Source: Escherichia phage WPEC3. Taken from it: a DNA stretch of 64,000 bases. Position numbers and translations under genes: made by a program. The first letter of the stretch is position 1. Each line of letters opens with the position of its first letter. A model generated the notes under the pieces. The model did not search any database, had not been told where the DNA came from, and saw nothing but the letters and a program-made list of their open reading frames with translations. Positions 39,238 through 40,191 of this stretch are shown here, in pieces. The stretch lies in the sequence record PV611058; one strand, 5' to 3'.

Positions 39238-40191
39238 TTAGAGTGAGCTTAACAGCAAATCCGCTCTGTTTGTAACTTGGCGATACCACAAGGAATTCAT
39301 GATTTCTTTCTTGAACTTCTTAGGGTTATCCATTTTAACACTTTTCCAAAGTTTGTCAAATGTTGCCAACTTATCAACGCCCATTGTGTATGACATTTCA
39401 AACAGGATACGCTGCTGTTCTTTTGTCAGATTAACTGCATCTTTCTTCTGCATCAATAGTGTAAAGTCCTCGTAAGTCCTTTTCATATCTTGCATTAAAA
39501 GTTTGTTGGCCTGTGCTTTGGTAATCCCGTTTCTGTACTTCATTGCATCAGAATCTTTCTTACCCAAATAATGCCCATAACCAATTGTATAATTACCTTT
39601 CATGTCCTTATAGGGATGAAATTTAGAATTGTGGAAAGGAACTCCAACTTTCCCACCAAGTAAACGTCGTTTGTTCTTGGACTGAAATTCAATAGAACCT
39701 TCAGCTTCTTTGATGTGATTGACAATTTCTGGATCTTTATAATCAAACAGTACAGTCACATCTGGTAACAATACGTTCTTCAAATCCTCTTTTGTTGGGA
39801 TAAAGATACCCTGAGAAGTATGAAGAGTTGCATTTAAGTTGATGTTCTTCAACAAAATGACATAATCTTCAATCTGTACATTTTTAGGTTTAAATTTCTG
39901 TGCAATAGAATAATAACTATCACCAGGTTGAACCGTATAATGTTTCTCGCTGCTTGGAACTGCTTTTGGTACTGACACCTGTGGTAGTTCCTGCTTTTGA
40001 ATTTGCGTAACTTGTGGTTTTAAATTATGCACCTGACTTTCGTCTAATGATGATGCACGATCACTTTGAGAAAAACCATAAAATCCAATCGCAGCGAATA
40101 GGGCTGATGAAACTAATACGCCTACGGCAATTTTAGTTTTCAGTGCTTTTTTCGCTTTTTTCAAAACGCCTCCTTTGTTGGTTGTTAACAA
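39238..40191 (-). CDS. membrane-anchored muramidase: signal-anchor + LysM + T4-lysozyme-like (GH24) domain; putative SAR-type endolysin
   Basis: Gly/Ala/Ser-rich hydrophobic segment IAVGVLVSSALFAAIGFYGF, LysM motif YTVQPGDSYYSIAQKF, GH24 signatures GNYTIGYGH and SLWYRQVTNRADLL. Start is TTG (40191, or the internal TTG at about 40164 behind a GGAGG). Confidence 0.8.
   Translation of the reverse strand: MLTTNKGGVLKKAKKALKTKIAVGVLVSSALFAAIGFYGFSQSDRASSLDESQVHNLKPQVTQIQKQELPQVSVPKAVPSSEKHYTVQPGDSYYSIAQKFKPKNVQIEDYVILLKNINLNATLHTSQGIFIPTKEDLKNVLLPDVTVLFDYKDPEIVNHIKEAEGSIEFQSKNKRRLLGGKVGVPFHNSKFHPYKDMKGNYTIGYGHYLGKKDSDAMKYRNGITKAQANKLLMQDMKRTYEDFTLLMQKKDAVNLTKEQQRILFEMSYTMGVDKLATFDKLWKSVKMDNPKKFKKEIMNSLWYRQVTNRADLLLSSL

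Follow-up and report, generated by a model that had tools for sequence, protein, structure and literature searches.

How a phage lysozyme that carries a hydrophobic N-terminal segment and a wall-binding module of its own, and whose gene has no canonical holin gene beside it, reaches the peptidoglycan is the question raised by the open reading frame (ORF) at 39238-40191, on the minus strand, of a 64,000-nucleotide stretch of Escherichia phage WPEC3 (sequence record PV611058), the whole of which is called the window in the following. The explanation favoured here, which in our judgement is evenly poised between right and wrong, is that the ORF encodes a Sec-exported endolysin similar to those of the signal-arrest-release (SAR) type, which would gain access to the cell wall independently of a holin and would serve lysis of the host. 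An earlier reading of the bare sequence (the original prediction) had already proposed a GH24 muramidase with a SAR-like segment, a LysM module and a TTG start, encoded at a distance from the other lysis genes.

Both the observation and its SAR-endolysin reading re-derive an in silico annotation published in 2017, and the family was already known. Buttimer et al. (2017; PMC5259590) described CBB_187, 121Q gp532, GAP32 gp180 and RaK2 gp506 as proteins in which an N-terminal transmembrane (TM) domain is followed by a LysM-like domain for wall binding and, at the C-terminus, by a lysozyme domain, judged both the TM and the LysM-like features unusual, and likened the TM domain to the signal arrest known from P1 Lyz and phiKMV gp45; induction of CBB_187 was reported to inhibit the growth of E. 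coli, the data not being shown in that paper (PMC5259590). The paper on RaK2 (Simoliunas et al. 2013; PMC3622015) lists three lysozymes. No experiment on the export, release or necessity of these lysozymes was found in the literature, and neither transcriptome nor knockout data for Rak2-like phages were present in the literature gathered for other questions, no dedicated search having been made. The novelty of the observation is low because the family has already been described; what is added here is a corrected and conserved TTG start, a fixed E-x31-D-x5-T spacing of the catalytic residues, relatives in which the anchor is internal, and an explicit account of the mismatch with the characterized SAR classes.

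The lysozyme, its start codon and its family

The window derives from an Asteriusvirus, that is one of the Rak2-like jumbo myoviruses of ~350 kb: positions 38500-40800 are 99% identical to the corresponding DNA of Escherichia phages Turkey3, EC.P1 and fEgEco12, and ~87% identical to that of 121Q, PBECO4 and phAPEC6, which belong to the same genus. The ORF is present as described, with its stop at 39238, and would yield 317 aa if opened by the TTG at 40189-40191. This upstream TTG is probably not the start: 121Q and phAPEC6 have CTT in its place, and no Shine-Dalgarno (SD) sequence precedes it. The second in-frame TTG (40164-40162) lies 4 nt 3' of the ribosome-binding site AAAGGAGG (40176-40169), the complete signal occupying 40162-40176, and this combination of SD and TTG is kept in 121Q, phAPEC6, Pectobacterium phage CBB and Yersinia phage fHe-Yen9-03, the last two representing two genera other than Asteriusvirus; the RaK2 orthologue starts with ATG. 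All orthologous coding sequence (CDS) annotations inspected have 300-311 codons, and those of Asteriusvirus have 308. Taken together, these observations make the TTG at 40164, rather than that at 40191, the most likely start, with a CDS of 308 aa plus stop at 39238-40164. Thus, the original prediction was right about a TTG start and about the lack of an in-frame ATG before the membrane segment, but had placed the start 27 nt too far upstream. The conservation, in several genera, of a weak TTG that follows a strong SD would fit a throttled synthesis of a toxic product. Residue numbers in the following refer to the 308-aa form, unless the 317-aa form is stated.

The protein is made up of several consecutive parts. 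A Lys-rich N-terminus (MKKAKKALKTK, residues 1-11) precedes the weakly hydrophobic, putative signal-anchor segment IAVGVLVSSALFAAIGFYGF (residues 12-31; 40072-40131), the G/A/S-rich segment of the original prediction, so that six Lys stand ahead of the hydrophobic stretch and an acidic flank follows it. A Ser/Gln/Pro-rich linker of ~42 aa (residues 32-73; 39946-40071), with pLDDT (predicted local distance difference test) values <50 and considered disordered, leads to the LysM domain (residues 74-122; 39799-39945), and this to the T4-type GH24 lysozyme domain (residues ~140-308; 39241-39747). The AlphaFold2 (AF2) model has a pLDDT of ~90 across residues 74-308. The muramidase assignment is borne out by the match to Pfam PF00959 (E=2.9e-11, 44.2 bits against a cutoff of 22.3), by a profile search of the PDB, in which T4 lysozyme (T4L) came out on top (E=1e-13), and by the T4 lysozyme fold of the model, for which the top Foldseek matches are again T4 lysozyme (prob 1.00, TMt 0.6-0.67). 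The LysM module, likewise confirmed, is marginal by sequence, PF01476 scoring 21.4 bits against a cutoff of 20.9 with only 17 of 43 profile positions matched, and is clearer in the model, where a beta-alpha-alpha-beta unit is found at residues 75-121 (pLDDT ~90); a PF01476 match is precomputed for two homologues. A search of NCBIfam gave nothing informative.

The catalytic residues E155 (39700-39702), D187 (39604-39606) and T193 (39586-39588) are invariant in 22 aligned homologues, and the spacing E-x31-D-x5-T is found in 66/66 family members retrieved; the equivalence of E155 with E11 of T4L is taken from motif and conservation, rather than from an inspected superposition. The canonical spacing is E-x8-D-x5-T, and Glu and Asp are separated by x8 in T4L. 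The Glu-Asp insertion (39607-39699) contains a highly conserved basic stretch, NKRRLLGGKVG, and is 10 residues longer than in the two paralogues encoded in the same genomes (see below). Within the otherwise variable disordered linker, which in the window protein bears the motif IQKQ, IQK[QH] is invariant in 59/66 homologues. The window lysozyme has no Cys, and most homologues likewise have none.

The 317-aa form matches phrog_15410 with E=1.9e-162 over its full length (residues 11-317; profile positions 2-311 of 311), and the Rak2-like TM-LysM-lysozyme family comprises 66 clusters at 43-99% identity. It occurs in 73 phage records, which are those of jumbo phages of 310-390 kb save for a few shorter Klebsiella-phage records, and whose hosts are Enterobacterales or Xanthomonas; a Vibrio jumbo phage gave one weak, domain-only match. 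Residues 14-308 of the window lysozyme are 100% identical to the proteins of fEgEco12, Turkey3 and EC.P1, labelled 'lysozyme' or 'endolysin' in fEgEco12 and Turkey3.

Export, anchoring and role in lysis

That the lysozyme is exported in an N-in/C-out orientation and anchored in the membrane is well supported by the features of its N-terminus. The strength of the anchor was compared with that of known segments in 19-residue windows with the simple summed Hessa dGapp scale, which is a crude, heuristic measure; the reference sequences of P1 Lyz and R21 were confirmed against PDB 1XJT and 3HDE. On this scale the anchor of the window lysozyme has a dGapp of +1.15 (mean Kyte-Doolittle (KD) value 1.99; G/A/S/T 47%), which places it near the SAR domains of P1 Lyz (+0.46; 2.06; 53%) and R21 (+0.78; 2.11; 63%) in both hydrophobicity and composition, and far from the TM segment of the 63-aa protein encoded nearby (-4.56; 16%), which is much more hydrophobic. 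Several homologues have a Glu or Asp within the anchor segment, which suggests weak anchoring.

The segment may be an anchor or, alternatively, a cleavable signal peptide. In the latter case the lysozyme would be a secreted endolysin, released by signal peptidase I and, similarly to Lys44, kept in check as a free periplasmic enzyme until the membrane is de-energized, and a LysM module would make functional sense in such a free enzyme. In most homologues, indeed, the hydrophobic region (h-region) is short and runs into AAA, after which F-E-F or I-G comes, a possible signal-peptidase site, and in at least one distant relative, P0073, the signal peptide looks classical (LSHA|N). However, at the AAA-equivalent site of the window protein (LFAA|IG) position -3 is Phe, in close relatives it is Ile, and the last Ala is replaced by Val in P0064 and P0066; hydrophobic residues follow the putative site, as they do in the uncleaved SAR domain of R21 (AVAAAIGGGA), and no conserved small-x-small cleavage site is present at the periplasmic end of the segment in the aligned homologues. 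Furthermore, an exhaustive HMMER search recovered more distant LysM-GH24 relatives, four of which (P0071, P0072, P0075 and P0077) carry the equivalent G/A/S/T-rich segment only after 48-96 N-terminal residues, with 3-5 K/R in front of it. Being internal in these proteins, the segment must act there as a signal-anchor and cannot serve as a cleavable signal peptide, and these relatives are the best sequence evidence for an anchor over a cleaved signal peptide in the family. We regard a secreted, cleaved enzyme as unlikely.

In P0071, P0075 and P0077, all metagenomic, a conserved cytoplasmic N-terminal domain of ~80-95 residues stands ahead of the anchor. This long form was found in metagenomic sequences only and in no isolated phage of the collection, the closest isolate being Xanthomonas phage XaC1.

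The role of the exported lysozyme depends on which other lysis proteins the phage possesses. The spanins, which the original prediction had located at 48631-49316, are confirmed as a two-component pair encoded on the minus strand 8.4 kb from the lysozyme start: the i-spanin (48942-49316) is an Rz-like protein of 124 aa with an N-terminal TM segment (phrog_1152 'Rz-like spanin', E=1.2e-27), the o-spanin (48631-48945) is a lipoprotein of 104 aa with the lipobox LISG|C and a weak LysC/Rz1-like match, and the two genes overlap by 4 nt. An HNH homing-endonuclease gene (48017-48628, minus strand), possibly a mobile insertion, abuts the o-spanin gene. The scattering of the lysis genes is thus real, with the spanins at this distance and no holin adjacent, but it is no oddity, dispersal being the norm in T4.

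According to the literature and to annotated records, each genome encodes three GH24 proteins, namely the anchored lysozyme, a soluble lysozyme of 162 aa and the baseplate hub, and tblastn found three GH24 places in most phage records. In the window, tblastn revealed no second GH24 gene, and neither tblastn nor a primer-sequence search revealed the 162-aa lysozyme. The gene of the latter, a T4-type enzyme (g331 in fEgEco12), lies between the gp25-like and hub genes; its homologue in phage UE-S1, LysUE1, has been purified and lyses cells in combination with EDTA (PMC12805682). The hub is a separate protein of 887 aa with OB-fold, beta-helix and M23-like regions and a C-terminal GH24 domain. An ORF of the same length in the window (29244-31907), suspected of encoding a hub lysozyme from the length of phrog_13211 (887 aa), turned out to encode the tail sheath. 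Compared with the GH24 domain of the window lysozyme, the 162-aa lysozyme shows 36% identity, and T4L and the C-terminal domain of the hub each show 29%; R21 matches it only marginally, and P1 Lyz does not match it. The protein likely originated, to judge from these similarities, by duplication of the phage's own T4-e-type lysozyme and fusion of the copy to the anchor and LysM within the Rak2-like lineage.

A holin candidate is encoded outside the window, ~128 kb from the lysozyme gene: fEgEco12 g406 (L007 1853-2515) is a protein of 220 aa with an N-terminal TM segment, similar to T4 holin T in size and topology, which matches the holin family phrog_860 weakly (E=6e-4) and has no match in Pfam. 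It was called a holin by HHpred at ~90% (PMC13070987). The T holin has been reported to be absent from RaK2 (PMC3622015).

With these components the favoured mechanism may be laid out as follows. The Lys-rich cytoplasmic N-terminus and the weak G/A/S-rich anchor would make the lysozyme a Sec-exported type II (N-in/C-out) membrane protein, with its compact LysM and T4-type GH24 unit held in the periplasm on the flexible linker of ~42 residues, so that the cell wall could be reached without a hole made by a holin. Collapse of the membrane potential late in infection, possibly brought about by the T-like holin of the phage or by another membrane protein, would free or unleash the lysozyme, and the separately encoded spanins, which would complete the set of envelope-disrupting proteins, would then disrupt the outer membrane. 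The anchored lysozyme would coexist with its soluble 162-aa paralogue. What has been shown is which domains and catalytic residues the protein has, that the expected topology signals are predicted, that the protein is conserved, that orthologues are missing from virion proteomes and, by others, that expression is toxic; we infer that the anchor is left uncleaved, that release follows depolarization and that the anchored lysozyme takes precedence over the 162-aa paralogue as the principal endolysin.

Several observations weigh against this explanation. The AF2 model is uninformative for residues 1-73, which include the anchor; the Hessa scale rates the anchor of the i-spanin as weak, too; and the short h-region followed by a possible cleavage site in many homologues has been mentioned. 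Between the anchor and the catalytic Glu stand 123 residues, which comprise the linker and LysM, the regulatory Cys and disulfide caging of class I SAR endolysins (P1 Lyz type) have no counterpart in a protein without Cys, and no lysis cassette with an adjacent pinholin or holin is present at the lysozyme locus, such a cassette being a usual, not an obligatory, trait of SAR systems. Furthermore, a linker of ~42 residues could span the periplasm, so that the tether alone would not be expected to keep the enzyme off the wall. The gene stands among translation and nucleotide-metabolism genes, behind a sigma-70-like match, and may be expressed early. Finally, the 162-aa lysozyme, with the lytic activity demonstrated for LysUE1, the T-like holin candidate and the spanins may form a complete T4-style lysis set, and it is uncertain whether the anchored lysozyme is 'the' endolysin, as it is not the sole candidate.

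The possible completeness of such a set makes a serious rival of the view that the anchored lysozyme is an accessory peptidoglycan hydrolase, permanently tethered in the periplasm, the real lysis pair being the 162-aa lysozyme and the T-like holin. In the course of infection the protein would reshape or weaken the sacculus, or it would hasten the final collapse, without ever being released and without being essential for lysis. The disordered linker of 42 aa would make release unnecessary for access to the wall, and the conserved block that the gene forms with those of HPF, CCA-adding enzyme, Nudix and glutaredoxin proteins, as well as the sigma-70-like promoter match upstream, would agree with such a function, as would the activity of the soluble paralogue and the presence of a holin candidate. 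On the other hand, the anchor is weak and G/A/S/T-rich family-wide, even where it is internal, which would be needless in a permanent anchor; expression of the CBB orthologue is toxic; the 162-aa gene, given its position between the gp25-like and hub genes, might serve baseplate assembly; and the holin assignment is weak, with no Pfam match. An accessory role is possible rather than probable. A further possibility, which we regard as rather unlikely, is that Rak2-like jumbo phages have a dual-endolysin system, in which the anchored lysozyme would be mechanistically new and would have gained its weak anchor independently of the P1/P21 SAR lineage. Its control would then be achieved not by the distance set by the tether, by SAR refolding or by disulfide caging, and might instead involve the NKRRLLGGKVG stretch, IQKQ or the positioning of LysM.

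That the protein could be a virion-associated (tail or hub) lysozyme, an alternative named with the original prediction, is scarcely credible. Matches to tail-lysozyme PHROGs (phrog_13211, E=6e-20, and phrog_2083) and such labels on some records would speak for it, but they reflect the shared GH24 domain only, the true hub is the separate 887-aa protein, and a Pfam scan of the window lysozyme found no OB-fold or beta-helix domains. Moreover, the virion data available for orthologues argue against a structural role: of two predicted lysozymes only the hub, gp241, was detected by mass spectrometry in phAPEC6 virions (PMC7247149), and not gp293, the orthologue of the window lysozyme, while CBB_187 is absent from the table of CBB virion proteins and is named only in the text on cell-wall enzymes (PMC5259590). 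An N-terminal signal-anchor would also be unexpected in a virion protein that is assembled in the cytoplasm.

Neighbouring genes and expression signals

The genes given with coordinates in this section, the hairpin and the sigma-70-like match lie on the minus strand. The gene of a homologue of the ribosome-hibernation factor HPF/RaiA (38890-39222) follows that of the lysozyme downstream after 15 nt, and the two are probably co-transcribed, as the HPF gene is in turn followed by a strong intrinsic-terminator-like hairpin (12 bp and a T-run; 38854-38881); this arrangement suggests a lysozyme-HPF bicistron that ends at the hairpin. The lysozyme-HPF pairing is kept in 121Q, CBB and fHe-Yen9-03 and is not found in RaK2, and a longer block, which runs from the lysozyme and HPF genes to those of CCA-adding enzyme, Nudix and glutaredoxin proteins, is kept in CBB and fHe-Yen9-03, RaK2 having it without HPF. 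Directly upstream of the lysozyme is the gene of a 2H phosphoesterase of 136 aa (40332-40742; Pfam 2H-SAK, 23.8 bits, below the cutoff of 27), the orthologue of which is given in the supplement of the fEgEco12 paper as Acb1, an anti-CBASS nuclease (PDB 7T26; HHpred 97.6%).

Between the phosphoesterase and lysozyme genes a sigma-70-like promoter match (TTGATA-16-TG-TATACT; 40281-40308) is present, which is a match to the consensus only, the number of sigma-70-like sites in the region not exceeding that expected from shuffled sequences. No copy of the T4 late-promoter octamer TATAAATA is present on either strand of the 64-kb window (0 against 7.7 +/- 2.6 expected from shuffles); being absent window-wide, the octamer is uninformative on the timing of lysozyme expression. 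Another element, CTAAA[AT]A-N3-7-TATA[ACT]T, is found at 40299, ahead of the lysozyme gene, and at 1318, 6382 and 28121, ahead of three structural genes, which makes 4 occurrences where 0.4 would be expected; it was derived post hoc from the same sequences and is therefore not evidence, but only a lead towards a phage promoter.

The immediate neighbours of the lysozyme gene being those of the 2H phosphoesterase and HPF, and none of the small membrane proteins nearby matching a holin, the original prediction that no canonical holin is adjacent stands. The single small membrane protein that it had noted in the vicinity, of 63 aa if read from the TTG at 38848 (38657-38848; phrog_4189, unknown function), is present, more likely as a product of 59 aa from the ATG at 38836. 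Besides this, a tail-anchored protein of 48 aa, basic at its N-terminus and ending in a hydrophobic tail (40957-41103; phrog_37784, unknown function), and a two-TM protein of 74 aa with an acidic C-terminus (42353-42577; phrog_22328, unknown function), whose gene shares 8 nt with the end of the thymidine kinase gene, are also encoded nearby. The latter was considered as a class II holin and discarded, in view of its acidic C-terminus and of the lack of family support and of any holin match.

The 63-aa protein has one very hydrophobic TM segment and a C-terminal domain with a conserved Cys pair, its last 35 residues being conserved in the genus. Three further genes separate its gene from that of HPF in Turkey3 and one does so in 121Q, whereas there is none in the window. 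With respect to Turkey3 a deletion or replacement of ~0.9 kb has occurred, with breakpoints near 38770 and 38831 (window 38770-38850 against L001 3272-4226), which joins the start region of a lost 126-aa gene to the 63-aa gene, so that the product is chimeric, with a new TM segment and the conserved C-terminus. Because the deletion is lineage-specific, the closeness of the 63-aa gene to the lysozyme gene is accidental, and it lends no support to a functional pairing of the two. The suggestion that the 63-aa protein is the lysis partner of the lysozyme by virtue of adjacency thus falls, and the protein was also rejected as a holin or pinholin, given its very hydrophobic single TM segment, its Cys-containing C-terminal domain, the lack of a holin match and its deletion-made position. 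Together with the start site, and with the two paralogous lysozymes and the T-like holin candidate encoded elsewhere in the genome, this accidental neighbour is among the useful corrections that the analysis provides.

Comparison with known lysis systems

The closest systems are the orthologues CBB_187, 121Q gp532, GAP32 gp180 and RaK2 gp506 (ORF029, gene 'e'), which are 48-91% identical to the window protein over their full length and share with it the TM, LysM-like and lysozyme architecture and the genomic neighbourhood, without any material difference. Next to these, T4 lysozyme (gp e) and the 162-aa paralogue (LysUE1, fEgEco12 g331, CBB_239) have the fold and the triad of the catalytic domain in common with the window protein, but they are soluble, cytoplasmic, holin-dependent enzymes that lack LysM, and the window protein has in addition the anchor, the linker, LysM and the 10 residues of the NKRRLLGGKVG region. 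Why two non-virion lysozymes are kept is part of the residual interest of the system, which is mechanistic and also concerns how a long-linkered, LysM-bearing, weakly anchored lysozyme of the T4 type is silenced.

A peptidoglycan-binding module N-terminal to the catalytic domain is also found in phiKZ KZ144 and in EL188 (both cited in PMC5259590), and such a position of the module is unusual for phages of Gram-negative hosts; unlike the window protein, KZ144 and EL188 combine a PG_binding_1 fold with a transglycosylase domain and have no membrane anchor. In practice, the TM-LysM-GH24 family might be a place to look for lysins that bind the wall of Gram-negative bacteria. Oenococcus phage fOg44, in turn, encodes Lys44, which is Sec-exported by means of a cleaved signal peptide and acts on a Gram-positive host. 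Its likeness to the window protein resides in holin-independent export, and in an activity that is presumably tied to the loss of membrane energization.

The comparison with the SAR endolysins P1 Lyz, R21 of phage 21 and phiKMV gp45 (Xu et al. 2004, cited in PMC5259590) is that on which the favoured explanation turns. Like these, the window protein joins a GH24 fold to an N-terminal, positively flanked, weakly hydrophobic segment rich in G/A/S/T, and holin-independent export by the Sec system is to be expected from such a segment in SAR endolysins and in the window protein alike. In the characterized SAR endolysins, the SAR and catalytic domains are directly contiguous, the former refolding into the latter or caging a catalytic Cys, and the catalytic residues are spaced as E-x8-D/C-x5-T. 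In the window protein the anchor lies apart from the catalytic domain and E-x31-D-x5-T is found instead; since the anchor is distant, the motif differs and Cys is lacking, R21-type refolding and P1-type disulfide caging cannot apply as such. If the SAR-like explanation holds, holin-independent export of an endolysin would have evolved a second time, from a T4-type lysozyme, and the principle of a weak anchor would work also with a long linker and a wall-binding module, in a way that current SAR models do not explain. What survives of the original assignment to the SAR endolysins is, accordingly, the export signal and a predicted weak G/A/S-rich anchor like that of P1 Lyz and R21, whereas the architecture and the motif of the characterized members are not those of the window protein, whose catalytic domain resembles T4 e much more closely than it does R21 or P1 Lyz. 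The term 'SAR endolysin' is, for this protein, a functional analogy that departs from the class in two of the structural traits by which its members are recognized.

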